A stretch of DNA of 64,000 bases from Schmidtea polychroa. Lineage: Eukaryota. The position numbers were made by a program, and so were the translations under genes. The DNA is taken from assembly GCA_044892525.1 (NCBI GenBank), contig CM097885.1, positions 7,814,001 through 7,878,000 on the forward strand, written 5' to 3'. The notes beneath the pieces were generated by a model. The model saw only the letters and a list, made by a program, of their open reading frames with translations. It was not told the origin of the DNA and made no database searches. Position 1 is the stretch's first letter. The number at the start of each line of letters is the position of its first letter. Below, one piece after another: positions 5,858 through 56,426 of this stretch.

Positions 5858-5910
5858 TACCGCGCCAGCCCCTTCGGGGCGGGCGGCGGGCGGGCGGGCG
5901 AACGGCGGTT
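5858..5910 (+). other. GC-rich hairpin with C(TTCG)G loop followed by a (GGGC)n tract
   Basis: CGCC-A-GCCCC-TTCG-GGGC-G-GGCG then GGGCGGGCGGGC, an isolated GC island in otherwise very AT-rich DNA. Confidence 0.7.
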
Positions 5911-6049
5911 GTGTATGTCGATGATTTTAATTTTTATTAAATTCATTTGTTTGATTTCAAAATTAGATTTGTGTGACGAACCTTGTTAAATTTTTGGTTT
6001 GATGTATTCGAGGAAGAAAAAAAAAAAAAAAATTTGTAAAACATTCTTT

Positions 6050-11260: not shown

Positions 11261-11569
11261 GTAAATTAAAGTAATAATTTTTAAATAAGTAATGTAATAA
11301 GTAAATTAAAGTAAGATTTTAAAATTTATTAACAAAAAGTTGAAATAATAGAAGGTGTTTGAGAATTGAAATTTTTTAATGAAAATTTTTATGAAATAAT
11401 TTTTTAAGTAATTTTTAATAGAAATTTTTATGGAATAATTTTTTAAGTTAATTTTTAATGGAAATTTTTATGAAATATTTTTCAATGATAATTTTAGATG
11501 GAAATTTTTAGGATAATTTTTAATGAAAATTTCTATGAAATATTTTTCAAAGACAAATTTTAATAATAA

Positions 11570-12610
11570 TTCAACAACAAACCAACAACTTAGTACCAAC
11601 AACCAGTAACTTATGAACATGTATTAACAATCAGATACCTACAACTAGTTACTAACAACCTGCTACCAAGTACTTACAATCAGTTACCTGCTACCAAATA
11701 CTTTCAACATGATACCACGTACTAAATAACTCTCAAACAACCAGATACTTACAACCAATTACCAGATACCAAGTACCTACAACTAGTTACTAACAACTAG
11801 TTACCTGATACTAAGTACCTACAACCATCTAACAAGTACTAACAACCAAAAACAAGCAACCAACTAGGTACCAAGTACTAACAACCGACAACAACCAGCT
11901 AACAACTAACTACAACCTACCAAGTACCTACAACCACATACTAACAACTAGTTACCAGATACCAACTACTCACAGACGTCAACAACCAGGTACTAAGCAT
12001 TATTAACCAACTACTAAGTACCAACAATAACTAACTACCAACTACTAAGTACCTACAACCACCTACCTATTAACTAGCTACAACCACCTACCAACTAGCT
12101 ACCACCTACCCATTAACTAGTTACAACCAGCTAACTAGGTACTAGATACCAAGTACTAACAACCAGTTACTTGCTACTAAGTACCAACAACCACCTACCA
12201 AGTACATACAACCAACATCAACCAGGTACTAAGCATTAATTACCAACAACTAAGTACCTACAATCACCTACCCATTAACTAGTTACTAAGTACTATCAAC
12301 CAACTAGGTACTAGATACCAAGTACTAACAACCAACAACAACCAGGTACTAATCATTAATTACCAATTACTAAGTACCTACAACCATCTACCAAGTACAT
12401 ACAACCAAGTACTAAGCATTATTAACCAACTACTAAGTACCTACAACCGACTAGCTACCACCTACCAAGTACCACCAACAACGAGATACCTACAACTAGA
12501 TACTAACAACTAGTTACCAGATACCTACTACTCACAGCCGTCAACAACCAGGTACTAAGCATCATCAACCAAGTAATAACAACTAGATACCTAGTACTTA
12601 CAACCAGATG
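11570..12610 (+). repeat. G-poor, C/A-rich degenerate repeat block (ACAACC/TACCAAGTAC motifs), mirrored at ~22795-23835
   Basis: Strong strand asymmetry, recurrent motifs, frequent stop codons and no ORF in the track. Confidence 0.8.
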
Positions 12611-13137
12611 ACCACATGAAATTATTGGTTAAATAAGTAAATTAATGTCTAATTTTTAAATTAAGTAATCAATGGTCTAAAATATTAAAGTTAAAGTTAA
12701 TTTAAGATGAAGATTTTCTGGGATTTCCAATGTTAATTTTAGATGCAAATCTTCGTCAATTAATCAATGACCACATGAAATTATTAGTTAAATATGAAAA
12801 TAAGGGTTATAATTAGTTGTTTAGTAAATTATGGTGTACAATTAAGAAATAAAGAATAATTAGGTAAATTAAGGATAAATTAAGGAAATTAAGGTTCAAA
12901 ATTTAAAATTAATTAACCAATGGTTCAAATTTTAAATTAAAGCTAAATAAGTAAATTAAAGTAAGATTTTTAAATTTATTATCAAAAGATTGAATAACCA
13001 CCAACTTTTTTGAGAAATGTAATTTTTAATGAAAATTTAAATGGAAATTTTTTTTTAAGTTAATTTTAAATGTAAAATTTTTTAAGTTAATTTTTATGGA
13101 ATAATTTTTTAAGTAATTTTTAATGGAAATTTTAATG

Positions 13138-13183
<46 letters not shown>

Positions 13184-13624
13184 TCAACAGTTCCCAACAA
13201 TCGGTTACTAAATATTTTTAACTAGATGCTAACAAATACTTTGAACATGATACCACGTACTAACTAACTCTCAAACAACCAGATACCTACAACTAGTTAC
13301 TAACAACCAACTAAGTATTCTTTATTGTATTTTATGAAATGCTTTTAAATTAATTTTTTATCTGTCTTTAAAAATATGTTTAATTACAATCAATAGAAAA
13401 CCTTTTCAAAATATCTAAATTTAACAAACATGTTGACTTTCATCAAAAAACCACAACTCAATCACTTTAAAACACCACGTGAAATTCAAAATAATTTAAA
13501 TTACAATGAAATACTAATGAATTATAATTTACAAAAACATCTTCTTTTAAATGATAACTACTGACTTATTATTGCAAAGTAAAAATCACATTCAATAAAT
13601 ACTTATTGTTGATCAGTTTTATTA

Positions 13625-16600
13625 TATATACTCTGAGTTTATCCGACAGGATGTTTTGACCCCCTAAGGGTACTGGTCGTAAGGGTACTGGTCGTAAGGG
13701 TATTAGTCGTAAAGGTACTGGTCGTAAGGCTATTGGTAACACTCAACCACCACCTACTCATTAATTAACTACCATGTACTAACAACCAGGTCTCAAACAA
13801 CTAAATACTAAACACTTACAACCCACAACAACCAGCTACTAAGCATTATCAACCTACAACTATATAACAACACTGTACCAGCTACCAAATACAAGATACC
13901 AAGTACCAACAATCAACTAACCACACATAAAAATAATAGCAATTAAATACAAAATATTCTTCATCACATACACTATCTTCTTATCAAAATCTAAAAAGTC
14001 AATCAGATACCAACTACCAACTACCAAGTACTAACAACCAACTACCTACAACCAACAACTATGTACTAACAAATTGATCTTTAAAAGAAAAATACTCATC
14101 ACTTGAAAAATTAGATGGAAAATTAATTGAACTCAAGACATCAATAACTTGGTAAAAATTGATTAAATAATTGCAAAAATTTAAATTTACTCAAAATAAA
14201 TATCATAAAAATTTAATTAATAGACAAGAAAGAATTCTATTCATTAATCATCCAGTAAATAAAAAAATACTGATCATTCAAGTTGAATCGACTAAGATAA
14301 TAAATTAATAAGATAAGATTTAGTAGATAATTGATTTAGATTGAATGAATTAATTGAAATAAAATTAATTTTAATTATTTTTTTTAAAAATAATACATGT
14401 ACTCAAATTGATTGACTGAATGCTCAAAATATTCAAAAATCAGTATAAATTCATTAAAATTATCAATGTCATCAATCTACAATAAAAATAATTATCATTA
14501 AATTCCAAAAGAGACTAGAAAACTAACAAACCAGAAAATTCATTCAAATGACAATAATTGGTATATTCAAGCGAATTCTCTAATAAAATCATCTAAAAAG
14601 AATCATTTCGCCTGAAATATCTCTATTTTTAAAGATTAGTATCTTATCGATAAGTACTTGTTAAATATCATATATTCACCTCAAACTAACAAGATTCCTT
14701 AAAATCCCTTAAATGACTATATTTCTACCCTTAATCAATATTATTACAAATAATTCAATAAAATCATCTAAAAAGCATCAAATTTCCCCAAAAATAACTC
14801 TATCTTTAAAGATTAGTATTTTATCGATAAATATCCTTAAAAGGTTATATATTTACCTCAGACTAATAAGATTCCTTAAAATCCCCTTTAAATGACTATA
14901 ATTCTAACTTTAATTCGTATTATCACAAATATTTCCCTATAAAACAGGTAAAATCATTAACTCTAAATAATTTATAAAATCTAATGATAAAACCGGTTAT
15001 AATAAAATTTTTGTTAATCACTGTACTCGAAATTTAAAATAAATATTGCTTGAAATTTGACTGTACAATATAACTGAGTAGTTGCATAGAAAGATTAAAT
15101 TTATCCATATTTCTTCAAATGATCATTTTTACCGATATCCAACCGATTTAATTACTAATTAAAATCACCCGATAGATTTCTCCCAATAAAGATCAATTTT
15201 CTTTAGTCGACGTTTTAAATCAATATTTCCAACTTTTGTCGTTGTCCGTCTAAATAAAGATAAAAAATAATTTAAAGTTGATATCAATCCCAATTATCTG
15301 TAAAGTTTTCATTGTCAAAACCAAGTAAATAGATTATCCCTACTTAATAAAACATTGTTCTAAAACATAAATCTAAATTAATTTACTGTGCATTAATCAC
15401 AACCTAATAAAACAATATAATTATTATTGATTCATAACTAATGTATTGCAATTTCCCTTAAAACATTGATATTTTGCCAACATCACCATTAAAAAAATCA
15501 TATATTCCCATCTTAACCCATCCTTAATTAAATTTAACCAACTATATCCCCTCAAAAGATCATATTTTCCCACCTTATTCGATCCCTCATTAAATCTAAC
15601 CGACAATATCCCATCTTAACCGATCTCTCACCAAATATTTCTACCCTTTTAAACATCTAACCAAATATATCCTTCAATTCTACCCACTTGAATCCTCCTT
15701 TAATTCAATTCAGTCTTAAAATCCTTAGAGAGAATTCTTCAAAAAATATGACTTTTAATTAACTGTTAAAGACACCAGACATTCTTCTATTGAAATAATT
15801 TAGTAGCTAAATAATAAGAGCCCACTAAAAGGTCAAAATTCACTAAAATTTTCTACAAATATTCACCATCAAATACCTAACTGGAGATGATACATATATT
15901 AATTGATGATAATTCTTCAGCTATTCAACCAATCATTTTCAAGCAGTAACAGCAAACTAAATTTCTGTATATCCTACAATAATTATCAAGTAAATTTAAA
16001 GTCCTTGATAAGGTTAACTGTTTCTTAGCTTATGTTTTTTAAAGTTCATCAAAGTGTAAATATTCTTAGAAAAATATTGAAAAATTATTTATTCAAATAC
16101 ATTACAAAGTTATCATCAAAAATCACTTAATTATTAACCTAATTGTCAATGAAATTAATTTTTATTTAAAAACTATTCAATAAAATACAACTAATTATCA
16201 AGAAATTAATTAAATTTATCAATTAAATTTATCAGTCAACATGAAATTCTTAGAAAATTATTCAATATCCACATAAAAATTTATCCACTTGATTATTGTA
16301 AAAACTCTAATTATTAACATTGAAAATAAATTTTATTTAACATTAAAAAACCAATCAATAAAAATACATTCAATTATCAAGAAATTAATTAAATTTACCT
16401 TAGAATTAGCATTAAATTACAGAAATTCACAAAAATAATGGAAATTCACAAAAATGATAAAAATTCACAAAAATAATAGAAATTCATGAAAATGATAGAT
16501 ATCCACGAAAAATTACGGAAATTCATGAAAATATTAGAAATTCACAAAAAATGATGGAAATTCATGAAAATGATAGAAATTTACTTGAATAAAACCATCA

Positions 16601-16776
16601 ACTCTAAAAATTATCAATGCCTTAAACAACAAATTTGTCTAAATAATCATTCAAATAAAAGCATTAAATACCTTTACGACTAATACACTTACGACATGTT
16701 GAATGTGAGTAGTACCCTTTGTGAGCAATACCCATAGGGGGACAGAATATTTTGTCGGATAAACTCAGAGTATATA
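13625..16776. mobile_element. Possible nested TA-flanked TIR element (ends TATATACTCTGAGTTTATCCGACA... / ...TGTCGGATAAACTCAGAGTATATA); mirror copy 18632-21783
   Basis: Two copies of the same ~45-bp motif plus 15-30-bp subrepeats face each other as inverted repeats, bounded by TATATA. Confidence 0.5.
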
Positions 16777-19700
16777 TTAATTAACTCATTCAAATTTATC
16801 ATTGAATCAGTAAAATTATCATAAATTTCGATAAAAATTCTAATGTGGTAAGCAATGAAAAGAGAAATATTCTTTAAACTTAGATAAAACTAACAATGAA
16901 GGTGGTAAGAATCATTAAAGTGAGAAAATTATTCATTACTCGATGATAAATTCAAATGGATGAAAATAATTGGTAGAATAATTTATTAATGGGCATAGAT
17001 AAGAAAAAAGGTTGATAAGAATGGAAATATATTAATTGAATTTATTTAAAATTATTTCATAAAATTCATAAAAAAAACTTTTAAAAGAAATATTTGTGGA
17101 GATGTTTTAGGTGAAAATTAATCAAAATCGGCGGAATATAATTGATTAAATATCGAGGATGGGGGTTATAATTAATGGAAAATCAATGGGATACAAATGA
17201 TTAAATAGTGGAAAATCCGGGAATATAAGTGATTAATTAATGGAATATTGAGAATCGGAGGAATATCAATGAGAAGGATATATAATTTAAACTAGTTTAT
17301 TACATAACAAGCCGCGACTAGTTTATTACATAACAAGCCGTGAATGATAATTTATTGAGAATTATTGATTAGATCTTTTTTTTTTAATTTTTGACTAAAA
17401 TAAATTCTAAAATAATAGCAAATTATTACTAAAATGTTTTAATTTGAATTATGTATTTCATAAACAATTATCATAAAAGAAAATAATATATATATTACCC
17501 TTTTCATTCAAAATAAGTTAAATATTCAAATATAAGTCTTAGAAAATACAATCAAAATTAAATTTTAAAAATATAAATTTTATAAGTTTTTCAAATTCTC
17601 GAATAAAGTAAATAAGAAATTAATCTATTACCAGTTACATACTTTTAAACTTATTGATGGAATAAAACATTAAAAATAAAAAGTGTTTTTTTGTATAAGT
17701 ACTTGTAATAATAGCTATATATTATTAAATTTACTATTCTACACTAAATATTTCGAAAACAAATATCATAATATGAATTATATTACTCCTTTCAATCAAA
17801 GTAAATTAAATGTATCATTCAAATACAATTAAAATTAAATCATCAATTTAATACTTTAATTTAAAAATAAAAATTTTATAAGTAAATGTAAATAAGTGTA
17901 TTAACAGTTCTAAACTTTTTAAACTTATTGATTAGGCAGTAGAAGCTAACTTTTTTTTCAAAAAGTCCTTTAACATTGTATTCTATTTATTATCAAATTA
18001 ACTATTTTACACTAAAATATTTCAATTTAGAAAAAAAAAATCATCATAATATTGAATGTGATACTTCAATCAAAATAAGTTAATACTCAAATATATGTCT
18101 TATAAAGTACAATCAAAATTAAATACTTCACTTCTCATTGATATTCCTCCGATTCTCAATATTCCATTAATTAATCACTTATATTCCCGGATTTTCCACT
18201 ATTTAATCATTTGTATCCCATTGATTTTCCATTAATTATAACCCCCATCCTCGATATTTAATCAATTATATTCCGCCGATTTTGATTAATTTTCACCTAA
18301 AACATCTCCACAAATATTTCTTTTAAAAGTTTTTTTTTATGAATTTTATGAAATAATTTTAAATAAATTCAATTAATATATTTCCATTCTTATCAACCTT
18401 TTTTCTTATCTATGCCCATTAATAAATTATTCTACCAATTATTTTCATCCATTTGAATTCATCATCGAGTAATGAATAATTTTCTCACTTTAATGATTCT
18501 TACCACCTTCATTGTTAGTTTTATCTAAGTTTAAAGAATATTTCTCTTTTCATTGCTTACCACATTAGAATTTTTATCGAAATTTATGATAATTTTACTG
18601 ATTCAATGATAAATTTGAATGAGTTAATTAATATATACTCTGAGTTTATCCGAAAAAATATTCTGTCCCCCTATGGGTATTGCTCACAAGGGTACTACTC
18701 ACATTCAACATGTCGTAAGTGTATTAGTCGTAAAGGTATTTAATGCTTTTATTTGAATGATTATTTAGACAAATTTGTTGTTTAAGGCATTGATAATTTT
18801 TAGAGTTGATGGTTTTATTCAAGTAAATTTCTATCATTTTCATGAATTTCCATCATTTTTTGTGAATTTCTAATATTTTCATGAATTTCCGTAATTTTTC
18901 GTGGATATCTATCATTTTCATGAATTTCTATTATTTTTGTGAATTTTTATCATTTTTGTGAATTTCCATTATTTTTGTGAATTTCTGTAATTTAATGCTA
19001 ATTCTAAGGTAAATTTAATTAATTTCTTGATAATTGAATGTATTTTTATTGATTGGTTTTTTAATGTTAAATAAAATTTATTTTCAATGTTAATAATTAG
19101 AGTTTTTACAATAATCAAGTGGATAAATTTTTATGTGGATATTGAATAATTTTCTAAGAATTTCATGTTGACTGATAAATTTAATTGATAAATTTAATTA
19201 ATTTCTTGATAATTAGTTGTATTTTATTGAATAGTTTTTAAATAAAAATTAATTTCATTGACAATTAGGTTAATAATTAAGTGATTTTTGATGATAACTT
19301 TGTAATGTATTTGAATAAATAATTTTTCAATATTTTTCTAAGAATATTTACACTTTGATGAACTTTAAAAAACATAAGCTAAGAAACAGTTAACCTTATC
19401 AAGGACTTTAAATTTACTTGATAATTATTGTAGGATATACAGAAATTTAGTTTGCTGTTACTGCTTGAAAATGATTGGTTGAATAGCTGAAGAATTATCA
19501 TCAATTAATATATGTATCATCTCCAGTTAGGTATTTGATGGTGAATATTTGTAGAAAATTTTAGTGAATTTTGACCTTTTAGTGGGCTCTTATTATTTAG
19601 CTACTAAATTATTTCAATAGAAGAATGTCTGGTGTCTTTAACAGTTAATTAAAAGTCATATTTTTTGAAGAATTCTCTCTAAGGATTTTAAGACTGAATT

Positions 19701-22223
19701 GAATTAAAGGAGGATTCAAGTGGGTAGAATTGAAGGATATATTTGGTTAGATGTTTAAAAGGGTAGAAATATTTGGTGAGAGATCGGTTAAGATGGGATA
19801 TTGTCGGTTAGATTTAATGAGGGATCGAATAAGGTGGGAAAATATGATCTTTTGAGGGGATATAGTTGGTTAAATTTAATTAAGGATGGGTTAAGATGGG
19901 AATATATGATTTTTTTAATGGTGATGTTGGCAAAATATCAATGTTTTAAGGGAAATTGCAATACATTAGTTATGAATCAATAATAATTATATTGTTTTAT
20001 TAGGTTGTGATTAATGCACAGTAAATTAATTTAGATTTATGTTTTAGAACAATGTTTTATTAAGTAGGGATAATCTATTTACTTGGTTTTGACAATGAAA
20101 ACTTTACAGATAATTGGGATTGATATCAACTTTAAATTATTTTTTATCTTTATTTAGACGGACAACGACAAAAGTTGGAAATATTGATTTAAAACGTCGA
20201 CTAAAGAAAATTGATCTTTATTGGGAGAAATCTATCGGGTGATTTTAATTAGTAATTAAATCGGTTGGATATCGGTAAAAATGATCATTTGAAGAAATAT
20301 GGATAAATTTAATCTTTCTATGCAACTACTCAGTTATATTGTACAGTCAAATTTCAAGCAATATTTATTTTAAATTTCGAGTACAGTGATTAACAAAAAT
20401 TTTATTATAACCGGTTTTATCATTAGATTTTATAAATTATTTAGAGTTAATGATTTTACCTGTTTTATAGGGAAATATTTGTGATAATACGAATTAAAGT
20501 TAGAATTATAGTCATTTAAAGGGGATTTTAAGGAATCTTATTAGTCTGAGGTAAATATATAACCTTTTAAGGATATTTATCGATAAAATACTAATCTTTA
20601 AAGATAGAGTTATTTTTGGGGAAATTTGATGCTTTTTAGATGATTTTATTGAATTATTTGTAATAATATTGATTAAGGGTAGAAATATAGTCATTTAAGG
20701 GATTTTAAGGAATCTTGTTAGTTTGAGGTGAATATATGATATTTAACAAGTACTTATCGATAAGATACTAATCTTTAAAAATAGAGATATTTCAGGCGAA
20801 ATGATTCTTTTTAGATGATTTTATTAGAGAATTCGCTTGAATATACCAATTATTGTCATTTGAATGAATTTTCTGGTTTGTTAGTTTTCTAGTCTCTTTT
20901 GGAATTTAATGATAATTATTTTTATTGTAGATTGATGACATTGATAATTTTAATGAATTTATACTGATTTTTGAATATTTTGAGCATTCAGTCAATCAAT
21001 TTGAGTACATGTATTATTTTTAAAAAAAATAATTAAAATTAATTTTATTTCAATTAATTCATTCAATCTAAATCAATTATCTACTAAATCTTATCTTATT
21101 AATTTATTATCTTAGTCGATTCAACTTGAATGATCAGTATTTTTTTATTTACTGGATGATTAATGAATAGAATTCTTTCTTGTCTATTAATTAAATTTTT
21201 ATGATATTTATTTTGAGTAAATTTAAATTTTTGCAATTATTTAATCAATTTTTACCAAGTTATTGATGTCTTGAGTTCAATTAATTTTCCATCTAATTTT
21301 TCAAGTGATGAGTATTTTTCTTTTAAAGATCAATTTGTTAGTACATAGTTGTTGGTTGTAGGTAGTTGGTTGTTAGTACTTGGTAGTTGGTAGTTGGTAT
21401 CTGATTGACTTTTTAGATTTTGATAAGAAGATAGTGTATGTGATGAAGAATATTTTGTATTTAATTGCTATTATTTTTATGTGTGGTTAGTTGATTGTTG
21501 GTACTTGGTATCTTGTATTTGGTAGCTGGTACAGTGTTGTTATATAGTTGTAGGTTGATAATGCTTAGTAGCTGGTTGTTGTGGGTTGTAAGTGTTTAGT
21601 ATTTAGTTGTTTGAGACCTGGTTGTTAGTACATGGTAGTTAATTAATGAGTAGGTGGTGGTTGAGTGTTACCAATAGCCTTACGACCAGTACCTTTACGA
21701 CTAATACCCTTACGACCAGTACCCTTACGACCAGTACCCTTAGGGGGTCAAAACATCCTGTCGGATAAACTCAGAGTATATATAATAAAACTGATCAACA
21801 ATAAGTATTTATTGAATGTGATTTTTACTTTGCAATAATAAGTCAGTAGTTATCATTTAAAAGAAGATGTTTTTGTAAATTATAATTCATTAGTATTTCA
21901 TTGTAATTTAAATTATTTTGAATTTCACGTGGTGTTTTAAAGTGATTGAGTTGTGGTTTTTTGATGAAAGTCAACATGTTTGTTAAATTTAGATATTTTG
22001 AAAAGGTTTTCTATTGATTGTAATTAAACATATTTTTAAAGACAGATAAAAAATTAATTTAAAAGCATTTCATAAAATACAATAAAGAATACTTAGTTGG
22101 TTGTTAGTAACTAGTTGTAGGTATCTGGTTGTTTGAGAGTTAGTTAGTACGTGGTATCATGTTCAAAGTATTTGTTAGCATCTAGTTAAAAATATTTAGT
22201 AACCGATTGTTGGGAACTGTTGA

Positions 22224-22266
<43 letters not shown>

Positions 22267-25200
22267 CATTAAAATTTCCATTAAAAATTACTTAAAAAAT
22301 TATTCCATAAAAATTAACTTAAAAAATTTTACATTTAAAATTAACTTAAAAAAAAATTTCCATTTAAATTTTCATTAAAAATTACATTTCTCAAAAAAGT
22401 TGGTGGTTATTCAATCTTTTGATAATAAATTTAAAAATCTTACTTTAATTTACTTATTTAGCTTTAATTTAAAATTTGAACCATTGGTTAATTAATTTTA
22501 AATTTTGAACCTTAATTTCCTTAATTTATCCTTAATTTACCTAATTATTCTTTATTTCTTAATTGTACACCATAATTTACTAAACAACTAATTATAACCC
22601 TTATTTTCATATTTAACTAATAATTTCATGTGGTCATTGATTAATTGACGAAGATTTGCATCTAAAATTAACATTGGAAATCCCAGAAAATCTTCATCTT
22701 AAATTAACTTTAACTTTAATATTTTAGACCATTGATTACTTAATTTAAAAATTAGACATTAATTTACTTATTTAACCAATAATTTCATGTGGTCATCTGG
22801 TTGTAAGTACTAGGTATCTAGTTGTTATTACTTGGTTGATGATGCTTAGTACCTGGTTGTTGACGGCTGTGAGTAGTAGGTATCTGGTAACTAGTTGTTA
22901 GTATCTAGTTGTAGGTATCTCGTTGTTGGTGGTACTTGGTAGGTGGTAGCTAGTCGGTTGTAGGTACTTAGTAGTTGGTTAATAATGCTTAGTACTTGGT
23001 TGTATGTACTTGGTAGATGGTTGTAGGTACTTAGTAATTGGTAATTAATGATTAGTACCTGGTTGTTGTTGGTTGTTAGTACTTGGTATCTAGTACCTAG
23101 TTGGTTGATAGTACTTAGTAACTAGTTAATGGGTAGGTGATTGTAGGTACTTAGTTGTTGGTAATTAATGCTTAGTACCTGGTTGATGTTGGTTGTATGT
23201 ACTTGGTAGGTGGTTGTTGGTACTTAGTAGCAGGTAACTGGTTGTTAGTACTTGGTATCTAGTACCTAGTTAGCTGGTTGTAACTAGTTAATGGGTAGGT
23301 GGTAGCTAGTTGGTAGGTGGTTGTAGCTAGTTAATAGGTAGGTGGTTGTAGGTACTTAGTAGTTGGTAGTTAGTTATTGTTGGTACTTAGTAGTTGGTTA
23401 ATAATGCTTAGTACCTGGTTGTTGACGTCTGTGAGTAGTTGGTATCTGGTAACTAGTTGTTAGTATGTGGTTGTAGGTACTTGGTAGGTTGTAGTTAGTT
23501 GTTAGCTGGTTGTTGTCGGTTGTTAGTACTTGGTACCTAGTTGGTTGCTTGTTTTTGGTTGTTAGTACTTGTTAGATGGTTGTAGGTACTTAGTATCAGG
23601 TAACTAGTTGTTAGTAACTAGTTGTAGGTACTTGGTATCTGGTAATTGGTTGTAAGTATCTGGTTGTTTGAGAGTTATTTAGTACGTGGTATCATGTTGA
23701 AAGTATTTGGTAGCAGGTAACTGATTGTAAGTACTTGGTAGCAGGTTGTTAGTAACTAGTTGTAGGTATCTGATTGTTAATACATGTTCATAAGTTACTG
23801 GTTGTTGGTACTAAGTTGTTGGTTTGTTGTTGAATTATTATTAAAATTTGTCTTTGAAAAATATTTCATAGAAATTTTCATTAAAAATTATCTTAAAAAT
23901 TTCCATCTAAAATTATCATTGAAAAATATTTCATAAAAATTTCCATTAAAAATTAACTTAAAAAATTATTCCATAAAAATTTCTATTAAAAATTACTTAA
24001 AAAATTATTTCATAAAAATTTTCATTAAAAAATTTCAATTCTCAAACACCTTCTATTATTTCAACTTTTTGTTAATAAATTTTAAAATCTTACTTTAATT
24101 TACTTATTACATTACTTATTTAAAAATTATTACTTTAATTTACTTATTTAACTTTAATTTAAAATTTTTGACCATTGATTACTTAATTTTAAAATTTGGA
24201 CCTTAATTAACTTTAATTTAATTTTTTAGAACCTTAATTTAGTTATTTGAGCCCATTCATTACTTTAAATTTAAAATTTGAACCATAATTTACTTTAATT
24301 CAAAAATTTGGACCATTATTTACTTTAATTGAAAAATTTGAACCTTAATTTACTTTAATTTAATTTTTAGAACCATAATTTACTGTAATTCAAAAATTTG
24401 AGCCATAATTTACTGTAATTTAATTTTTTAGGACCATTATTTACTTTAATTTAATTTTTTAGAACCATAATTTACTGTAATTCAAAAATTTGGACCATTA
24501 TTTACTGTAATTTAATTTTTAAGAACCATAATTTACTGTAATTTAATTTTTTAGAACCATAATTTAATGTAATTAAAAAAATTTGGACCATTATTTACTT
24601 TAATTGAAAAATTTGGACCATTATTTACTGTAATTTAATTTTTTAGGACCATTATTTACTTTAATTTAATTTTTTAGAACCATAATTTACTGTAATTCAA
24701 AAATTTGGACCATTATTTACTGTAATTTAATTTTTAAGAACCATAATTTACTGTAATTTTATTTTTTAGAACCATAATTTAATGTAATTGAAAAATTTGG
24801 ACCATTATTTACTTTAATTTAATTTTTAGAACCATAATTTACTTTAATTTTTAGAACCATAATTTACTGTAATTGAAAAAATTTACCACGCTTTTTTAGT
24901 GTAGACCACCTTTTTCTCAGGACCAAGGAGACCCACCTTAATTGAACTAAAAAAATCCATGCTTTTTTATTGATAATCGGATTTTTGTATTGAAAATATC
25001 TTGAGACCTTAAATTGCCACTCTTTTTTTAGTGTAGACCACCTTTTTCTATTGAAAATATCCTGAGACCTTAAATTACCATGCTTTTTTATTGATAGTCG
25101 GATTTTCTATTGAAAAAATTTTATTTGTATTGAAAATCCCCGGACCATCGAGACCCCCTCACTATAGTGTGAAAATTCCATGCTTTTTTAGTGGTAGTCG

Positions 25201-25730
25201 GATTTTTGTATAGAAAAAATTTTATTTGTATTGAAAATCCCAGGACCATCGTTTTTGTATAGAAAAAATTTTTTTGTATTGAAAATTCCAGGACCATCGT
25301 TTTTGTATTGAAAAAATTTTTTGTATTGAAAATCCCAGGACCATCGTTTTTGTATAGAAAAAATTTTTTGTATTGAAAATTCCAGGACCATCGTTTTTGT
25401 ATTGAAAAAATTTTTTTGTATTGAAAATCCCAGGACCATCGAGACCCCCTCACTATAGTCTGAAAAATTGCGTAATCAAAAGTTGCAGCAAAAAAATTAC
25501 GGCAGCAGAACCCCCCCCCCCCGGGGGGGGTCATTGCTGCCGTGCCCTACTATCTACCTACTAATAACATTCCATTATTATCAAATAATAACAATTTTAT
25601 AATGTTCTTTTAAGTTTTAATAGAAAACACGAAAACGCCAGATAAATGAAATATATTTCAAGGAAATTATCTTCATCATCAGTTTGCCATCATAATGTAT
25701 GTCAGCATTTATATATGGAAACAATAATGA

Positions 25731-45620: not shown

Positions 45621-46929
45621 CTTTATTAAACTTTTACTGTAAATTTGATTTTAACAGTTCTAAATATCAAAAGTTTTACTTGATAATTATTTTTACTTTA
45701 AACGAAATGTTTCCTTTACAAAATACTTTTTTTATTACAATTAATTTATAGAAATCTTTAGAGTATTTTGAAATATATCACGGTCGTTATTGAACCAAAT
45801 GTCTAGTTAGACGTGCAAGTGACTTACAAATTATTTACTTATAGTGAGGCAATAGATTGATTATAATAATTCAAATATGGATTGAAGATTTAAATAAAGA
45901 TAAATGGGGTATCAAATCATTTATTTTTCTTTTTTTTTGTTTTAAAAATTGACATACGTTTTATGTTATTACAATATGGACACGTTACAGATATCAATTT
46001 AAGCTAAAATAATTTTGGAAATAAATTATTCAAATTGATACCTATGATAAAATTGTCAGCGTAGATTTTGCCAAATCCGTTCGCTAACTTGGATTCATTA
46101 ACTTGGATCGAAAAGTCTTTTAGATTATCATTACCAAATCCATCGTGAATTAGAACTTCAATTTTGTTTTGAGCGTTTCTGACATCTTTTTAATAATCGA
46201 TTCCAAATACCTTTCTGCTTCATTAGCCGGTTCAGTCATCCATTTATCAGTTTTAATTAATACATCTTTTTGAGTAAATGCAGTGTCAGGTGAAATTTCT
46301 TCAGAATTTACTGGGAATTTCATCTTGAAATTTCATCATTAGTTTGAATTTCATCGTCTTCGTTAAACATTTCATGTCAATATGTATTTTATTGTTATCG
46401 TTTTCCAATTCTAATTGTTGTGATTCTTCACGTTTTACAATTAAAACCCGTAAATAAGTTTCATATTTCATCATATAATCATTATATTCTGTAACAAATT
46501 CATTTATAACTAATTAAATTAAGCAATTTTAGAAGTAACTTTCAAATTAAATTTTCAAGGTTCAAAACATTTTATTTAAAAAAAATATGAAAAAATAACC
46601 AAATCACTTTTTCAAACAAAAACTCTAATTCCAGAAAAAATTCAATAAAAGTCCAAAAAAACATTGTCCGCGTCTGTGTACAAATTCAAAAACAACGCGC
46701 ACACAGATGCGATAATTAACCTCATGTTTGACCAACTTATATGAGCATAATCCTTGTAAACATCACTTTAAATTATTCTTCGTATAGCTTTCTTGATTCA
46801 TAGCCTTAAAATGATTACCCCATAGTAGTAGGATGTGTCACCACTGGCACATGTCACCTCTGGCACACTACCGCCCCCGGGGGGGGGGGTAAACGACATT
46901 TTTTTTCAAGGTCAAATTTTAAACAAAGA

Positions 46930-47360
46930 CATATGACTCATCAAGGTCATTGAAACAAAGACCATGACTCATCATATGACACATCAAGGTCACTGAAACA
47001 AAGACCATGACTCATCGAGGTCATTGGATGACTCATCAAGGTCATTGAAACAAATACCATGACTAATCCTATGACTCATCAAGGTCACTGAAACAAAGAC
47101 CATGACTAATCCTATGACTCATCAAGGTCACTGAAACAAAGACCATGACTCATCGAGGTCATTGGATGACTCATCAAGGTCATTGAAACAAAGGCCATGA
47201 CTCATTCAAGGTCATATGATGACTCATCAAGGTCAAAGGATGACTCATCAAGGTCATTGAAACAAAGACCATGACTCACTCAAGGTCATATGATGACTCA
47301 TCAAGGTCATATTTTTAAGGTCAAGGTCATATTTTTTAAGGTCAAGGTCATATTTTAGGG
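46930..47360 (+). repeat. TIR tandem array of ATGACTCATCAAGGTCA units, mirrored at ~55050-55500
   Basis: More than a dozen TGACTCA and AAGGTCA motifs per arm. Confidence 0.9.
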
Positions 47361-49806
47361 TCAAACCTTCACCAAAGGGTATCATTCGAAAGGTATTTGA
47401 GAGGTCTATCTAATGGTCATACCCTCGAAGGTGTATGGTGGGTCAATAACTAACAATTGCTATAAAATATTGAATCCCCAAATGATTATTTTATTACAGA
47501 AGAAACCGTGAATGGTATTTGACTGAGTAATTATGATAAATTCATATTTTAAATTTTGATTAAGTCCTTTAATATTAGCAATTTATTATTAAATTTACTA
47601 TTTTACACTAAATATTTCATTTTCAAAAACAAATATTCTAAAAGATAATTTAAGATACATTACTCTTTTCAATGAAAATTAGCATTCAAAGTTAAAAGGG
47701 ACACACGAAAACTTACTCAAATATAACCGAAAGACATAAAACAACAAAACCAAATTCCATTAAATACTTTATAGCAATTGTTAGTTCTTATAATTTCTAA
47801 CTTTAATGAAGATTCTTACCATCTGAGAATAATATTGTTAATTTATCTCGAGTGTTATTAAAATTATCTTTCGACTTTACGCTTCTTACCATTTTAGAAT
47901 AAGATTTGTTATCAAAATTTGTGTTAATTTGGCTGATTTAATTTGATGGAGTTATTGTTAATTCGTTTTATTATATAAATATATACTCCCTCTATGGGTA
48001 CTGTTCACAAATGGTACTGCTCGTAGGGGTACTGGTCTTAAAGGTACTGGTGTGTTTTAATGTTTTTATTTAGGCAAATATTTGGTTATTATTTGGCATT
48101 AAATTCATTGGTAAATTTTTAGAGTTAGCGGGATTTTACTAACATCATTACTAACATGTTTTGTGAATAATTGAAAGAATATTTAAAAAATTAAGGTTTT
48201 AGTGTTAATTCTAAGACAAATTTAATTAATTTCTTGATAATTTGCTATATTTTATTGACTTGTTTTTAAATTTAAATAAAAATTATTTTTAATGACAGTT
48301 AGGTTAATAATTAGAGTTTTTACAATAATCAAGTGATTATTATTTAATTTTTGTAAAAATTATTGTAAAATATACTGAAATTTGTGATTTTGAAAGATAT
48401 ATCACGGTTATAATTGCTATATAATTGGCTGAATCGATGAAGAATTATGATCAATATATTTCATCTCTAGTTAGGTATTTGATGGTAAATGTGGTGAAAT
48501 ATTTGTAGAAAATATTGATTTTAGTGAATTTTGATCTTTTAGTGAGCTCTTACTACATGAATTTAGATACTAAATTATTTCAATGGAAGGATGTCTGTAA
48601 CAATTAAATAAAATTCATATTTTGAAGAATTTTCTATGGATTTTAAGAGAATTGATATATTAAAGTCGGTAGGATTTAGTGATGGTTTAGTTAAGATGGT
48701 AATATATGATTTTTAAAGGGGGGTATTTAAAGGGGTAGAAATATTTAGTGAGGGATCGGTTAAGGTGGAAATGTTTGAAATCTTTATTTAAATCGACAAT
48801 GTTCTTATTGATAAAATATCAAAGGGACATAGTCAGTATTTAGCTATGAATTAATAATAGTTCCTGTGAAATTATATCGTTTTAGAGGTTTATTAGGTTG
48901 TGATGAATGTTATTGCACAGTAATTTATGTTTTAGAATCAATTTTATTAATTAACCATTGTTTTATTAAGTCGTTTAGGGTTAATGATCAATTTACTTGG
49001 TTTTGACAATGAAATATTTGAAATCTTTAGAATTAATTGGGATTGATATCAAAGGTTATTAAATTATTTTATTTAAGAAGTTATTTTATTCATTGTGGGG
49101 AAATATTGAGAAATATTGACTTAAAAGTTGGAAATCGACAACAGCTAAAGAAAATTGATCTTTATTGAAAATATTTTATGATTTTAATTAGATTTCTAGA
49201 AATTAAATCGGTTGAATATTAAGGGTAAAATCTATTGAAGGAATATTGTTATCGGATGGATAAATCTTTCAATGATATTTTACTAAATTACCTTTGTTAA
49301 ATATTATTTTAACTGACTAAGAAAGAGAAAATTAACCAATATTCTTAAATTATTCGCACAAAATATCGCTGTTTTGGTAAAAGGTTACTCAAAATCCCTA
49401 TTTAATAATGTTAAGCATGTATTTCTCACAAAGATATATTACACCCAATGATCATCTCAATAAATTAGAAAAGAATTGTAACCCTATATTTCTAACTAAT
49501 AAGCGCCTTAATTGGTTAAATGATAACTAAATGATCATGTTTCTATTATGACTCCTTTTGCCTCAAACAAAGATAGAAATTTACTCCAAATGATAAAGAC
49601 TTTCTACCAAAATTATCAATGAATATATGTTGTTATTAATGAATATCCATTTCCCAAGAAGTTATATTAACTATTGCAATGAACATTACATGAATAAATT
49701 ACCTATGAAATATTAAATATTCATATCTTACCTTTTGCTAAATATTATTTTAAATGACTAAACATGACAAAGTTAACCAATAAATTAGTCGCTCGAAATG
49801 AGAATT

Positions 49807-50497
49807 CGGTAAGTTACATTCAAAATATTCACGAATTTCTGATATCTATGATCATCCATTTCTCACTAAATTACCTAAGAACTTTTAACTAATATACATG
49901 TGCTTTAATTAATATACCCTTGCGACATGTTGAATGTAAGCAGTACCCTTGCGACATGTTGAATGTAAGCAGTACCCTTACGACAAATACACATAGGGGG
50001 ACAAAATATATTGTCGGATAAATTCAGACTATATATAAAAACTTACAATATGCTATGATTTTTATTGATTAATTTGTTGTATATTGCATTGATACATCAA
50101 AATGTCAGATAATATTTATAAATTAACTAAAAAATACGGTAAGTTACATTCAAAATATTCACGAATTTCTGATATCTATGATCATCCATTTCTCACTAAA
50201 TTACCTAAGAATTTTTAACTAATATACATGTGCTTTAATTAATATACCCTTGCGACATGTTGAATGTAAGCAGTACCCTTGCGACATGTTGAATGTAAGC
50301 AGTACCCTTGCGACATGTTGAATGTAAGCACTTCCCTTACGACAAATACACATAGGGGGACAAAATATATTGTCGGATAAATTCAGACTATATATAAAAA
50401 CTTACAATATGCTATGGTTTTTATTGATTAATTTGTTGTATATTGCATTGATACATCAAAATGTCAGATAATATTTATAAATTAACTAAAAAATACT
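49807..50497 (+). repeat. Tandem duplication (~330 and ~360 bp) differing by one 29-30-bp CCCTTGCGACATGTTGAATGTAAGCAGTA subunit
   Basis: CGGTAAGTTACATTCAAAATATTCACG starts at both 49807 and 50137. Confidence 0.9.
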
Positions 50498-51417
50498 ATA
50501 TTACCTAAGAATTCAGTTATGTTTCTAGTTAAATAATTGAGATAATTGGTATTACTATCAGCTATATAAAAAAATTTGTTATGAATCCAAGAATATTTTA
50601 ATTAAATGGTACAGCCAAAAACCATGGATTTCTAACTAAATTTTTAAATTTATCTGGAAATATTTTACTTAAGAAATTGCTATATTTAAAATAACTTTTC
50701 ACTAAATTGCCTAAAAATTTGCTATATGGTATTGTTAAATAATCATAATAATAAAAATAAAAATAATAATATTATGAAAAAATAATATAATTGTATGACT
50801 AATAAATTTGCAATACAAGTGCATAATTAACAAAGACTTAGCAATAAATGGGCATGATTAACAAAGACACTAGAAATATTATCTTTACATTTTGTCGAAG
50901 ATGATTATGGCAGTAATATCAGAGGAGAATCAATGAACAGAAGAAAAGCATCATTATGATTTATAATAATTGTAAATATAATTTTATATATAATTGTAAA
51001 TTTCCATATATATAAATAACACTATATAAAAAAATTAATACAAATATTAAAACAAAATGAATATGTTTTAATCAAAAAGTATTACAATAAAACAATAAAT
51101 TTATAAAAACAAATTAAAACATTTATTTCCGAAAAAATAATAACCAATACATCCAGCATCTTCATGGTTCTTGCGAAGATCTTTTTCCATTTTGATGAAC
51201 TCATGGGTATATTTCATTCTGAATAATCTAAAAATAATATTATAAATACCATTCGCTTCATCATATCATCAACATTTGGTAGTTGCGCCCAATATAATTA
51301 ATTACCAAGCTGATTTCATATTATTCAATGTTTGAAAATTTCCTACATTATAGTACCGTCATTATGTCTGTTAATAATTCATTTGACTTTGATATTGTAT
51401 TGATTTGTATTGAGAAC

Positions 51418-52075
51418 TTACATGTATATAGTATGATATTCATTAATCAGTATTAAACAGGCTTGACGATTGCGAACATTCTTCTCGTGACACTAAGAAC
51501 AAACAATTACGTGACCACACGGTAAATACAAAACCGAAACTTGATTTTCTTTACAAATTGAACAAGTTAAATACCTTTTCTTAACATCGTTCAGTTTTTC
51601 CGTTAGCTTATTTTCAATCAAGTCGGCTTTTGCTATCCATTCATAAATCAATCTACTATATCCCGTTTTCAACCTTAAATATATGCAACTCCAAAAGTAT
51701 TCATTCAGTGAATCGTTGTTTACCACTGTTTTTTCTAAATACATTAAATAACTAGATAACTTCAAAATGCATTTATCATAATTAAATAAATCAATCAAAT
51801 ATTCAATAGAGGAATGTTTGAAAATTTTTAAAATATTTATGATTTGCTTATCACTGTAAGTATCATGATTATTTATAAAATCTTCAACTGTGTTGTTGAA
51901 AAATTTCAATGAACGCTTATCTTCGGAATAGGTTGGACTTAATATTTCATTATTTCTAGTAGGATGTCCTTGCTATAAATGACATATATAAAAAATATTG
52001 ACAAAATAATAAAGTTACCAAATGTGTTTTGTGATTTACACATTCATATTCAACAGTTTTACTTGTAGAAATCAT
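51418..52075 (-). pseudogene. Spliced homolog of the 5230-5787 RING gene with a premature stop (exons 52075-52019 and 51972-51418)
   Basis: Clear protein similarity (IFKHSSI.YLIDLFNY.KCILKLS.YLM; CSICKENQVSVLYLPCGHVIVCS). TAG at 51495-51493, then the frame continues CHEKNVRNRQACLILINEYHTIYM* with one RING Cys changed to Arg. A 46-nt GT-AG intron (52018-51973) joins MISTSKTVEYECVNHKTHL in frame. Confidence 0.85.
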
Positions 52076-52320
52076 CAGTAATAAATTTCTTAATAAATAA
52101 ATTACTTTTGTTTTTACATTTATAAAAATTGAGATAGCCAATCAAATAAGAGTTTTCAAAATTTAGAAATTGTAACCATGGTTGAACCTTCAAATGTCTA
52201 AGTAAGATCATATTGTATAACAATAATAATAAGCATGACTAGTAACCTTGCAACCTGTTGAGTGTGAGCAGTACCCATAGGGGGACAAAATATTTTGTCG
52301 GATAGACTCAGAGTATATAG

Positions 52321-52378
<58 letters not shown>

Positions 52379-52764
52379 TACTTTGAAAATAAATAATAAG
52401 AAATTTGAAAATAATTTTGAAAATGATAATAATAATATTTTATAAATAAACTAAGAATTTTGAAGAAAATTATGATGAAAATATTGAAAATCGTGAAAAT
52501 TATGAAAATGTTAAAAATCATGAAAATATAGAAAATGATGAAAATGTTCCTGAAAATGTTGAAAATCGTGAAAATATGGAAAATAATGAAAATGTGGAAA
52601 ATGATGAAAATATTGAAAATGATGAAAACGTTAAAAATTATGAAAATGTTCCTGAAAATAATCATCAAATATTGAAAATCGTAAATTGATGCAGAAATTA
52701 AGTTTTATGAATATTTAAGTAAATAATAATAAAACATCGAAAATAAAATAATGAGAACTTCGCA

Positions 52765-52805
<41 letters not shown>

Positions 52806-53036
52806 TAATAATAATAATAATAATAATAATAATATTGATAAAAACTTTGAAAAATATTCGATGAAAAAATCCTGAAATAATCATGAAAATGTAGAAAATT
52901 ATTAAAATAATCATGCAAATGATGAAAATGTTGAAAATCATGTAATTGACGTAGAAATTATAAATATTTTATAAATATTTAAGTAAATAATAATAATGAA
53001 ACTTCTAAATTAAAATAATAATTAGAACTTTCCAAA

Positions 53037-53085
<49 letters not shown>

Positions 53086-55619
53086 TCTTTGAAAATAATT
53101 CTTTGAAAATAATACTTTGAAAAATATTTGATGAAAATGTTCCTGAAATAATGATGAAAATGCTGAAAATCGTGAAAATGTTGAAAATCATGAAATTGAC
53201 GTAGAAATTAAGTTTTATGAATATTTGCAATAATAATCATAATCATAATAATAATAATAATGATAATAATAATAATAATAATAATATTGATTAAAATTTT
53301 GAAAATAATAATAATAATTTTGAAAATAACATCTTCCGCGAGGGCGTTAATATCTTTCCCAATAATAATGATAAATTAAATAATTACATAATCGATAATT
53401 TAAACAAACGTAATCGATAATTAAAACAAAAAAATAATATAATCAACGATTTAAATAAAATAAATTATTATGTAATTGATAATATTTTGAAAATAATAAT
53501 ATGTCCTCGAAAATAATAATAGTTTGAAAATAATAATATGACCTTGAAAATAATAATATTTTGAAAAATAATAATATGACCTTGAAAATACTAAAATAAT
53601 AATTATAATAATATTAATACCCTTGCGACATGTTGAATGTGACCAGTACCTCTACGACAAATACACATAGGGGACAGAATATTTTGTCGGATAAACTCGG
53701 ACTATATAATAATAATAATAATAATATTGATTAAAACTTTGAAAATAATAATTTTGAAAATAACATCTTCCGTGCGGGCGTTAATATCTTTCCCAATAAT
53801 AATGATAAATAAAATTATTACGTAATCGATAATTAAAACAAAAAATTATATAATCAACGATTTAAACAAAATTAAATCATTACGTATTCGATAATTAAAA
53901 CAAAAAATAAAAATATTATTATATAATTAACGATTTAAACAAAATTAAATTATTACGTTATCGATTATTAAAACAAAAATAAACCGCTGGAACAAAAATA
54001 GATGTCTTTGTTACTAAAAATAGAACGACTTTGGCGAGTCATCGGATCAAAAATGTTACTAAAAATATATTCAAAATATTACTAAAAATAGATGTCTTTG
54101 TTACTAAAAATAGAACGACCTTGATGACTCAGCGGCTGAGTCTGTGTTTAAATTACCTTGATAATTTAAACTTGATGATAATAATAATATTAATAATAAA
54201 TTTTGAAAATATCTTCGAAAATAATAATAATACTATTGATAATAATAAATAGAATTAATAATAATAATAATAAATAATAATAATACTATTGATAGTAATA
54301 AATAATAAATCCCATGGGCGCGTCATTGTCTTTGTTCAAAAAATAAATGAGTCATCGATGAGTACTTTTGTATTGCCGTTTGTTTGATATGTATATTACA
54401 AGGTTTGAAAAATTTAAACCTTGTATCCTTAGACTCTTTGACCTTCAAACTTGGACCATGATACTTACATCTCAAATACCTTTTGTTTGATATGTATATT
54501 ATAAGGTTTTAAAATTTTTGAACCTTTTGGACCCTTTCGGTGGTATGACCTTTGAGGGTATGACCATCATACTCACCTTTGTATTACCTAATTTGACATG
54601 TATATATCTATATGTATAATTTTTAAAGGTTTTGGACCCTTTGAAGGTTCAGGACCATTCATAAACCTTTGAAAGTATGACCATGATACTTACATCTCAA
54701 ATACCTTTTGTTTGATATGTATATTATAAGGTTTTAAAATTTTTGAACCTTGGACCCTTAGACCCTTGGACCTTCGAACTCACCATCAAAAGTCCTTTTG
54801 AATGGTATATATATTATATGATTTGAAAAATATTTAATTTTGGATACCCTTTGAAGGTTATTGACCCACCATATACCTTCGAGGGTATAGTCATTAGATA
54901 GACCTCTCAAATACCTTTCGACTGATATATATATATATTATAAAGTTTGAAAAAATTCGAAGGTTTTTGACCCTTTGAAGGTTATTGACAGACCATACAC
55001 CTTCGAGGGTATGACCATTAGATAGAATGATACCCTTTGGTGAAGGTTTGACCTTAAAATATGACCTTGACCTTAAAAAATATGACCTTGACCTTTAAAA
55101 ATATGACCTTGACCTTAAAAAATACGACCTTGACCTTAAAATATGGCCTTGATGAGTCATCATATGACCTTGAGTGAGTCATGGTCTTTGTTTCAATGAC
55201 CTTGATGAGTCATCCTTTGGCCTTGAATGAGGCATGGTTTTTGTTTCAATGACCTTGATGAGTCATCCAATGACCTTGGCGAGTCATCATATGACCTTGA
55301 ATGAGTCATGGTCTTTGTTTCAATGACCTTGATGAGTCATCCAATGACCTTGAGTGAGTCGTGGTCTTTGTTTCAATGACCTTGATGAGTCATCCAATGA
55401 CCTTGATGAGTCATGGTCTTTGTTTCAGTGACCTTGATGAGTCATAGGATGAGTCATGGTCTTTGTTTCAATGACCTTGATGAGTCATATGTCTTTGTTT
55501 AAAATTTGACCTTGAAAAAAAATGTCGTTTACCCCCGCAAAACATCTTAAAGAACAAAGCTTAAAGATAAACATTTGTCATCCTTAATGAAGGTAGAAAC
55601 GTCAAATACATTTAAGCCG

Positions 55620-56295
55620 AATATTTTAGACCATAAATAACTTTAATTCAATTTTTAGACCCATAATTTACTGTAATTGAAAAATCTGAGCCCATAATTT
55701 AATTAAATTTTTAGACCCATCATTTACTTTAATTCAAAAATCTGAGCCCATAATTTGCTGTAATTCATTTTTAGACCCTTAATTTACTTAATTTCAAAAA
55801 TTTACCACGCTTTTTAGTGTGGACCACCTTTTTCTATAGGATTATCAGGACCAAGAAGACTCACCTTAATTTACTTTAAATATTCTATGCTTTTTTAGTG
55901 ATAATCAGATTTTTGTATTGAAAATATCATGGGACCTTAAATTACCACTGTTTTTTAGTGTAGACCACCTTCTTCTATTGAATATATCCTGAGACCTTAA
56001 TTTACCATGCTTTTTTATTGAAGACCGCCATTTTGTATTGAAAATTCCAGGACCATCGAGAGCCCCTCACTATAGTCTGAATAATCCATGCTTTTTTATT
56101 GAAGACCACCTTTTTGTATTTAAAAAAATTTTTGTATTGAAAATCCCAGGACCATGGAGACCCCCTCACTATAGTCTGAAAAAAAAATATTTTGTACTAA
56201 AAATCCTTGAAAGCAAAGAAAGTGAGTTGCCCCATTTGCGTAATCAAAATTTGCCTCAGAATTTGATTGCGGCAGGGGGACACTAACTACCTACT
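55620..56295. mobile_element. Right-terminal fragment of the 10324-25562 element family
   Basis: Same ~30-bp CCATAATTTACTGTAATT array and CAGGACCATCGAG...CCCTCACTATAGTCTGA motifs; terminus ...CTACCTACT at 56295. Confidence 0.8.
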
Positions 56296-56426
56296 AACTT
56301 GAACTGTAATAGTTATACGTGTTTCATACTGTTTTGCTTTCCGTTATGTGTTTTAGTTTCGCAGTTGCGTATCGTCACGGTAAGATGTAGGAAGGCCACA
56401 TACGCACTGTAATCTAACATTTGGCA

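Follow-up and report, generated by a model that had tools for sequence, protein, structure and literature searches.

A probable collapsed foldback derivative of a Polinton in Schmidtea polychroa that shares its centre with a giant palindrome

We analysed a stretch of 64,000 nt of the forward strand of the Schmidtea polychroa genome (GCA_044892525.1, CM097885.1:7,814,001-7,878,000), referred to as the window, and compared three elements within it: a Polinton, P (1-6868), a giant palindrome (10324-25562), and a third element, M (46824-55536). With a probability of roughly 60%, M is the collapsed remnant of a foldback element of ~16 kb, built around the centre also found in the giant palindrome, after the loss of almost an entire arm and fusion to the truncated end of another element. 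The stretch 46824-56295, which a preliminary description of this DNA had delimited, is most likely two things, M and a separate palindrome-type end remnant, and not one element. The window is AT-rich, gene-poor eukaryotic DNA in which AAT microsatellites are abundant.

As proposed in the preliminary description, the interior of M was homologous to the middle of the palindrome: positions 47484-49246 were collinear with the palindrome spacer and inner right arm (17316-20300), in blocks of 64–83% identity. The best block scored 211 bits; none of 30 locally shuffled subjects exceeded 43.7 bits, and none of three non-element stretches exceeded 35.6 bits. The GC skew is mirror-imaged in the palindrome arms, at -0.32 (15100-16950) and +0.32 (18470-20300), and was +0.40 at 47790-49250 in M. 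Within the window, the shared interior did not behave as a repeat residing mostly outside Polinton-type termini: it had no match in non-element DNA, and all eight good copies of a 44-bp box lay inside M or the palindrome.

The edges of this shared centre carry the argument for a former foldback. M holds one spacer unit, as against three in tandem in the palindrome, and the unit is enclosed by a 31-bp inverted repeat (47445-47475 and 47759-47789) that is 90% complementary, with 19 bp perfect. The unit starts ~10 bp from the start of the palindrome spacer, and both of its edges lie within ~15 bp of the palindrome's arm/spacer edges; spacer unit and edges alike correspond to those at the palindrome's centre of symmetry. 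The right 31-bp copy spans the palindrome's exact arm edge at 18131, with ~21 of 31 positions identical (18th among 30406 scored positions). The left copy begins where the homology of the terminal inverted repeat (TIR) stops, within a truncated 120-bp unit. A 19-bp perfect inverted match was reached by 0 of 200 local shuffles, and this pair was the sole perfect repeat of at least 17 bp within 400 bp across 47400-54400. The copies agree with each other at 90% but with the corresponding palindrome segment at only ~68%, a value similar to the length-weighted identity of the other blocks shared by M and the palindrome (~69%). Since each copy resembles its partner more than it resembles the palindrome, the pair would have been kept uniform once the two lineages had separated. 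Long arms do this (99.8% over 5992 columns in the palindrome, whose arms measure ~7.5 kb), whereas a lone 31-mer does not. The mirrored length of M is 15963 bp, against 15239 bp for the palindrome. M does not have two long arms: its left side consists of the TIR and the 31-bp stub alone, and we read the stub as what is left of a deleted arm.

Several observations weigh against this interpretation. Perfect repeats of at least 19 bp were also present in 2 of 11 non-element control stretches, one an AAT microsatellite and one a 29-bp pair at 62295/62422 (a twelfth stretch overlapped M and was excluded). The arm-edge match is short and AT-rich, and five other sites score as high or higher. Directly after the edge, the palindrome carries 330 bp (18149-18475) that are missing in M, and the 64-kb window contained no complete foldback of the M type. 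The edge match would serve equally well if M were the ancestral one-armed state, in which a short inverted repeat beside the left TIR seeded fold-back priming and so gave rise to giant palindromes. The spacer is collinear into the right arm in both elements, the distance from tip to break in M is 8713 bp against 8274 bp for the palindrome's spacer plus right arm, and in yeast large palindromes form from a 42-bp inverted repeat lying next to a break (PMC7999016, in its accessible part). We nevertheless regard this direction of change as rather unlikely, since the 31-bp copies are far more alike mutually than to the palindrome and the left copy begins, as at a deletion join, with 3 bp of overlap within a 120-bp unit that is cut short.

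The similar divergence seen everywhere between M and its relatives (tip 83%, units 69–77%, RING gene 83%, interior 64–83%) would also suit a derivative of a sister Polinton family that has simply undergone internal deletion, in which the shared pieces reflect nothing but common descent and the 31-bp repeat arose by chance or marks the ends of a small inserted cassette. Most genomic Mavericks are degraded, according to the accessible text of PMC8097293, and the 29-bp pair provides another inverted repeat elsewhere in the window. This account is improbable, however, because both edges of the bracketed unit match the edges of the palindrome's centre, no target duplication surrounds the unit, and none of the 200 shuffles reproduced the repeat. 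As a miniature inverted-repeat transposable element (MITE) or small cassette, 47445-47789 was rejected: it has no flanking target duplication, and the 28-bp stub has no other copy in the window with fewer than 8 mismatches. An old symmetric palindrome about M's own middle was likewise rejected, with just one 33-bp box-to-box inverted match found. The features of the elements are collected in Table 1.

Table 1. Positions of P, the giant palindrome, and the parts of M and its surroundings in the window (TSD, target-site duplication)
Feature	Positions	Strand	Remarks
Left-truncated Polinton P: pPolB 954-4855 over two frames, RING 5230-5787, 120-bp units, ACTACT end	1..6868	+	
Giant gene-less foldback element, 6-bp TSD AATAAC on both sides	10324..25562	.	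exact arm pairing ends at 17276 / 18131
Left flank CCCCAT	46818..46823	.	no matching copy behind any Polinton-type end of the window
Polinton-type left tip, AGTAGT start, C-tract/G-tract	46824..46884	+	right counterpart absent
Left TIR of M: TGACTCA/TCAAGGTCA array, 21-bp units, part of one 120-bp unit	46885..47450	+	
31-bp stub, inverted copy of 47759-47789	47445..47475	+	3-bp overlap with inner end of left TIR homology
One 283-bp spacer unit	47476..47758	+	70–79% blocks to 17316-17517, 17689-17800, 17955-18041
Putative innermost 31 bp of retained arm	47759..47789	+	collinear with palindrome arm/spacer edge 18118-18148
Homolog of palindrome inner right arm 18476-20300	47790..49246	+	64–83% collinear blocks, same G-rich skew
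330-bp tandem duplication, 29-bp iterated units and a 44-bp box per copy (49992, 50351)	49803..50496	+	90.7%
RING (zf-C3HC4_3) gene of M, broken	51418..51972	-	faces away from nearest end, opposite to P
Two further boxes (52276, 53665), decayed AAT-rich / 9-bp repeated modules	52237..54310	+	no protein family match
About five ~120-bp subterminal units	54376..54980	+	69–77% to P 6267-6629; high summed depth
Right TIR of M, terminates within poly-C tract	54981..55536	-	
83-bp linker	55537..55619	.	low-copy repeat by read depth
Right end, most likely of a separate palindrome-type element, cut in its 30-bp array	55620..56295	-	70–96% over 55620-56183
Right flank AACTTG	56296..56301	.	no AACTTG followed by AG start in the window

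The match of the left tip of M to P, claimed previously, was reproduced at 83% over 47 bp (46822-46868 against the reverse complement of the P end, 6824-6870). An inverted-repeat pair overlooked in the preliminary description (46885-47450 / 54981-55536) is 94.6% identical over 533 aligned columns and 97–98% identical outside its array (163/166 and 88/91), so M has two ends of its own type. The right TIR breaks inside the poly-C tract, and its outer ~60 bp are gone. The ~120-bp subterminal units were correctly recognised as homologous to P (6267-6641, 69–77%) but not correctly placed, as nearly all lie at the right (54376-55018) and only ~70 bp at the left (47380-47450). M thus combines a Polinton end motif and TIRs, although the right tip is missing, with a tip, 120-bp units and a RING gene that match those of the pPolB-bearing P. 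No pPolB, integrase, ATPase, protease or capsid gene was found in 46500-56800, which holds only the broken RING gene, and tblastx of M against 80 pPolB metagenome loci matched RING and nothing else. The right tip and flank of M are lost, and in a check for a 6-bp TSD the flanks of the whole 46824-56295 were unequal. We regard M as most likely a non-autonomous Polinton derivative, one that lacks the core genes.

Inward-pointing GGTC arrays were present at all four end types. Counts on the plus and minus strands were 0/8 in P (6267-6868), 16/1 and 1/24 in the palindrome (10324-11300 and 24100-25562), 22/5 and 5/23 in M (46885-47450 and 54981-55536), and 0/14 at the second palindrome-type end (55620-56295), against 18/13 in 21.2 kb of non-element DNA. 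Each M TIR contains TCAAGGTCA 14 times and TGA(C/G)TCA 11–13 times, and the P units contain WAWNTRGGTCA five times, all of these counts being inflated by tandem amplification. The three motifs correspond to the binding consensus sequences of NR5A/ERR, AP-1, and ROR/Rev-erb, respectively. A C-tract/G-tract hairpin near the tip was strong in the palindrome (10324-10420, z -5.95), weak in M (46874-46890, z -1.53), and absent from the P end and from the 56295 tip. The right end of M breaks inside the C-tract/G-tract.

The RING homolog reported earlier in M was recovered at 51418-51912 on the minus strand, with 83% identity to P 5290-5787. It is interrupted by a stop within the RING domain at 51493-51495. 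Over the 140 codons before this stop, dS between P and M was 0.41, dN 0.125, and dN/dS 0.31, with 19/14/31 changes by codon position, and on these substitutions the two genes are judged to have diverged under purifying selection. The open part of the M gene was identical at 128 of 138 positions (93%) to P0001, an independent, uninterrupted protein from a cluster of 5, and the M protein at 120 of 162 (74%) to the RING protein of P. This divergence and the closer match to P0001 indicate that M derives from a sister coding lineage and that P is not its parent. A cost of our interpretation is the orientation of the gene, which is opposite to that in P relative to the end and needs an extra inversion or relocation. 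A search of viral contigs gave one pattern match for RING, none confirmed, and a protein atlas search with RING returned generic RING clusters only.

The proposal that P (1-6868) is the autonomous helper was not upheld, as the element is cut at the window edge, its polymerase is split, and core open reading frames (ORFs) are absent from the window. The pPolB frame is broken near 4082-4097 and therefore not uninterrupted, and no integrase, ATPase, protease, or capsid ORF was found in the 64 kb. The polymerase contains an endonuclease VII-like insert and has at least 500 relatives among 8000 scored candidates, many of them with PF03175. About 60 unnamed metagenome proteins (P0002-P0059, L001-L012) form a close pPolB group at 35–58% identity to P, and named animal pPolB homologs are clearly further away, at 29–36%. 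The 80 pPolB metagenome loci retained out of 432 showed no DNA match to M, the left half of the palindrome, or the P tail, and RING hits in those 80 were weak (2/80). Viral contigs contained no locus for pPolB or for the tip pattern, and a PDB sequence search with the polymerase profile gave 0 matches. An intact ORF of 359 aa at 6949-8028 (-), 80 bp past the right end of P, is gag-like and encodes a CCHC zinc knuckle; no pol ORF was seen nearby.

The palindrome has AGT...ACT ends, a 6-bp TSD, and near-identical arms, as a foldback satellite would, and no ORF with a family match was seen in it. Ends of the form AGT...ACT together with a 6-bp TSD are a Polinton signature (PMC8097293, accessible part), so its ends and AATAAC duplication place it with Polintons whether or not M is considered. 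The preliminary description had taken M as the best evidence in the window for this origin. M does support the link as a bridge, since it aligns to both P and the palindrome. Those two gave no direct alignment when low-complexity sequence was filtered, and otherwise nothing beyond AT-rich hits, none of them above 34.7 bits. The palindrome's own TSD and ends, however, are direct evidence that needs no mosaic. As far as sequence comparison can tell, M speaks for a Polinton origin and for a foldback centre that has been inherited over a long time.

At the right-hand join, the reported palindrome-type terminus stood for 55620-56183, but the outer 56184-56295 gave no hit of at least 45 bits, which suggests that the tip belongs to another subfamily. 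The flanks CCCCAT and AACTTG were unequal, as stated earlier, and we agree that this is not one clean insertion: the ends differ in type, the flanks differ, and no partner TSD exists. An integrase acting on a two-ended 46824-56295 would leave matching flanks, so the unit probably did not transpose as such. No homology was detected across the join of M, linker, and palindrome-type end, and the linker had no match elsewhere in the window (best local score 40, against 36–42 in five of five shuffles).

As a read check, we placed contigs from 4 of 24 sequencing runs (X1, X5, X7, X9) on 54330-56900 at 85% likeness; their summed depth is inflated by repeats and does not equal copy number. In X1, depth was 2.42e6 at 55501 in the TIR, 5382 at 55595 (linker, from 13 contigs), and between 6.5e5 and 6.7e6 across the palindrome-type arrays, and the corresponding values in X5 were 9.36e5, 1424 (17 contigs), and 1.2e5-1.1e6. 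X7 and X9 had no linker contigs. With linker depth ~450-650-fold below that of the TIR in two runs, the join appears to be a rare composite. In X1 the flank bin 56308-56393 had a depth of 315, and one contig crossed tip and flank with 0 differences; an X5 contig there had 9. Points on the other side are that the linker is itself repeated (13-17 contigs), that no contig bridged 55536 among the contigs listed, and that all X1 depth at 55595 carries another letter than the window, X1 being possibly the source sample. Over 54330-56900, G>A contig differences exceeded A>G in both X1 and X5 (28 vs 12-15). Parts of 46500-52300 were present in 20 of the 24 listed sequencing runs, which we did not use as evidence, and no RNA run was listed among those containing this region.

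We therefore did not retain the earlier reading of 46824-56295 as a terminus swap: the palindrome-type end is what remains of another element, no homology is seen at the junction, the flanks differ, and the join is rare by depth. If satellites swapped termini routinely, the combination of M-type TIR, linker, and palindrome-type tip would be a real family, with this locus a unit or an ectopic recombinant of it. Consistent with such a family, the linker is a low-copy repeat (13 and 17 contigs in two of the four runs), M aligns at its ends to P, with no alignment there to the palindrome, and in its interior to the palindrome, inward GGTC arrays are common to all end types, and module replacement has been published for nematode Polintons (10.1101/2023.08.22.554363, accessible part). 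Ends like those of P and a centre like that of the palindrome, whose ends match neither, would be the pattern that ancestral exchange predicts. We still hold routine swapping to be unlikely, in view of the unequal flanks and the 450-650-fold lower linker depth. The sub-tip array of M has no match even in P, suggesting that end arrays turn over fast and that unalignable ends need no swap; the interior of P, which may also have such a centre, moreover lies outside the window. An assembly artefact that joined two repeat arrays at 55536-55620, which would be compatible with a collapsed foldback, is very improbable. No listed contig bridges 55536 and X1 shows only the other letter at 55595, but the former holds among the contigs listed and so proves nothing, the join does not lie within a shared repeat, and the tip-to-flank join at 56295 is covered by contigs of X1 (0 differences) and X5 (9). 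Nesting of M inside a palindrome-type element was rejected, as no upstream AACTTG with AG start was found and 42200-46823 has no homology to the elements.

Beyond 49246, the 44-bp box was the sole piece shared between M and the palindrome. Its copies lie at 13668(-), 16733(+), 18675(-), and 21739(+) in the palindrome and at 49992, 50351, 52276, and 53665 (all +) in M; these eight have 0-9 mismatches and the next best site in the window has 16, so the box is limited to the two elements. It is 82–93% identical, above most of the collinear interior, has TATATA at its end, follows iterated units of 15 or 29 bp, and contains or nearly contains ATAAAC in six of the eight copies. On these features it is a candidate promoter, packaging, or origin signal. 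We rejected a hairpin or structured RNA on the basis of z-scores of -1.65 and -0.11 and the lack of an Rfam match, with 0 Rfam matches at gathering score in the whole of 46500-56800. ATAAAC promoters were found upstream of none of the three genes considered (pPolB and either RING gene), and metagenome contigs gave 0 matches to the box pattern. At 52450-52689 (+), downstream of a box and an AAT run, a stop-free run of 79 codons of E-N-x triplets has no family match and is a candidate for a decayed gene or a plain 9-bp repeat.

Elsewhere in the window, a 383-bp unit is repeated 2.9 times at 100% identity at 41011-42114 and is related to 61915-62432, which may reflect recent duplication or an assembly artefact. 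The 128 bp at 62295-62422 are bounded by a perfect 29-bp inverted repeat and may be a small MITE. A match to a Sleeping Beauty-type transposase helix-turn-helix at 26905-27126 (-) is weak and below the curated cut-off, and we read it as a Tc1/mariner remnant.

For the collapsed foldback, the ancestor would have had an arm-spacer-arm layout with Polinton-type tips, 120-bp units, a RING gene in the arm, and the palindrome's centre. One deletion, with a 3-bp overlap at its join, would have taken out almost all of the left arm, beginning within the first 120-bp unit and stopping 31 bp before the spacer. Either before or after it, a non-homologous deletion with one end in the poly-C tract would have removed the right tip of M and fused it, through 83 bp of other repeat DNA, to the foreign end, and this would account for the mismatched flanks. 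G-tracts can seed deletions, as the C/G tract may have done here. During active life, a Polinton integrase and protein-primed polymerase supplied in trans may have acted on the AGT...ACT ends and inward GGTC arrays, and each round of copying may have re-templated the arms on each other while the unpaired spacer drifted and duplicated. We infer the former full left arm, the causes of the deletions, and arm homogenisation; mobilisation in trans is suggested by the ends and the TSD. Long palindromes are unstable, and short inverted repeats and palindromes are sites of rearrangement (PMC7999016, accessible part); instability of this kind after insertion would explain the loss of the arm.

Snap-back, self-complementary defective genomes occur in DNA viruses and linear plasmids. 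Zebrafish is said to carry non-autonomous Polintons, in work attributed to Kapitonov and Jurka in 2006 and to Repbase. Like Polintons/Mavericks of the animal type, (AGT)2...(ACT)2, the elements studied here have AGTAGT on M, ACTACT on P, and a 6-bp TSD on the palindrome (PMC8097293; 10.1101/2023.08.22.554363, as far as these are accessible), and they share with this type TIRs of ~630 bp and, in P, a pPolB with an endonuclease VII-like insert. Unlike Polintons, M has no core genes or right tip, the flanks of 46824-56295 do not form a TSD, and the palindrome arms of ~7.5 kb far exceed the TIRs of 100-1500 bp given in the accessible parts of the same two sources. The Polinton remnants at eri-6/7 of C. 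elegans are similarly gene-poor, with Polinton ends and rearranged neighbouring DNA, but no foldback centre is described in the accessible text (10.1101/2024.01.15.575659), whereas in M a vestige of the symmetry axis persists, in common with a 15-kb palindrome. Chimeric non-autonomous transposons of Anolis (hAT, mariner, Helitron) are also mosaics of several families; those are amplified families, and the two-ended mosaic here is a rare composite (PMC3014272, in the part available, where non-autonomous Polintons are apparently absent from the anole). Foldback inversions show the same arm-spacer-arm layout centred on a short inverted repeat (accessible part of PMC7999016), but unlike such one-off rearrangements, the present case is an integrated, inherited mobile family whose centre has outlasted ~30% divergence. 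We found no paper on foldback or end-swapping Polinton satellites, in a literature coverage that was incomplete and does not establish their absence from print; the accessible part of PMC6431247 does not mention foldback Polintons.

Replication of Polintons has been inferred rather than observed. The accessible part of 10.1101/2023.08.22.554363 describes the elements as characterised mainly in silico. A broader proposal, which we put forward as tentative, is that heritable self-complementary Polinton satellites exist in this genome as half-length replicons whose folding about a conserved centre brings them close to genome length, and that the centre, inner arm, and 44-bp box form a functional module that was moved between helper families with different ends and kept through ~30% divergence. 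If this were true, a foldback would rebuild both ends from one arm, so that a single template switch would swap both termini; M would be a gene-bearing missing link, and the transcription factor-like sites arrayed in its TIRs would couple replication to signals of the host. As it stands, the locus is decayed and composite, valuable as a historical marker and not as an active system. A foldback centre in two lineages with different ends, one of which retains a Polinton gene, would make the re-copying of arms in each round testable from genome data, and so too whether element length stays close to a packaging size and whether centres differ from ends in their history.

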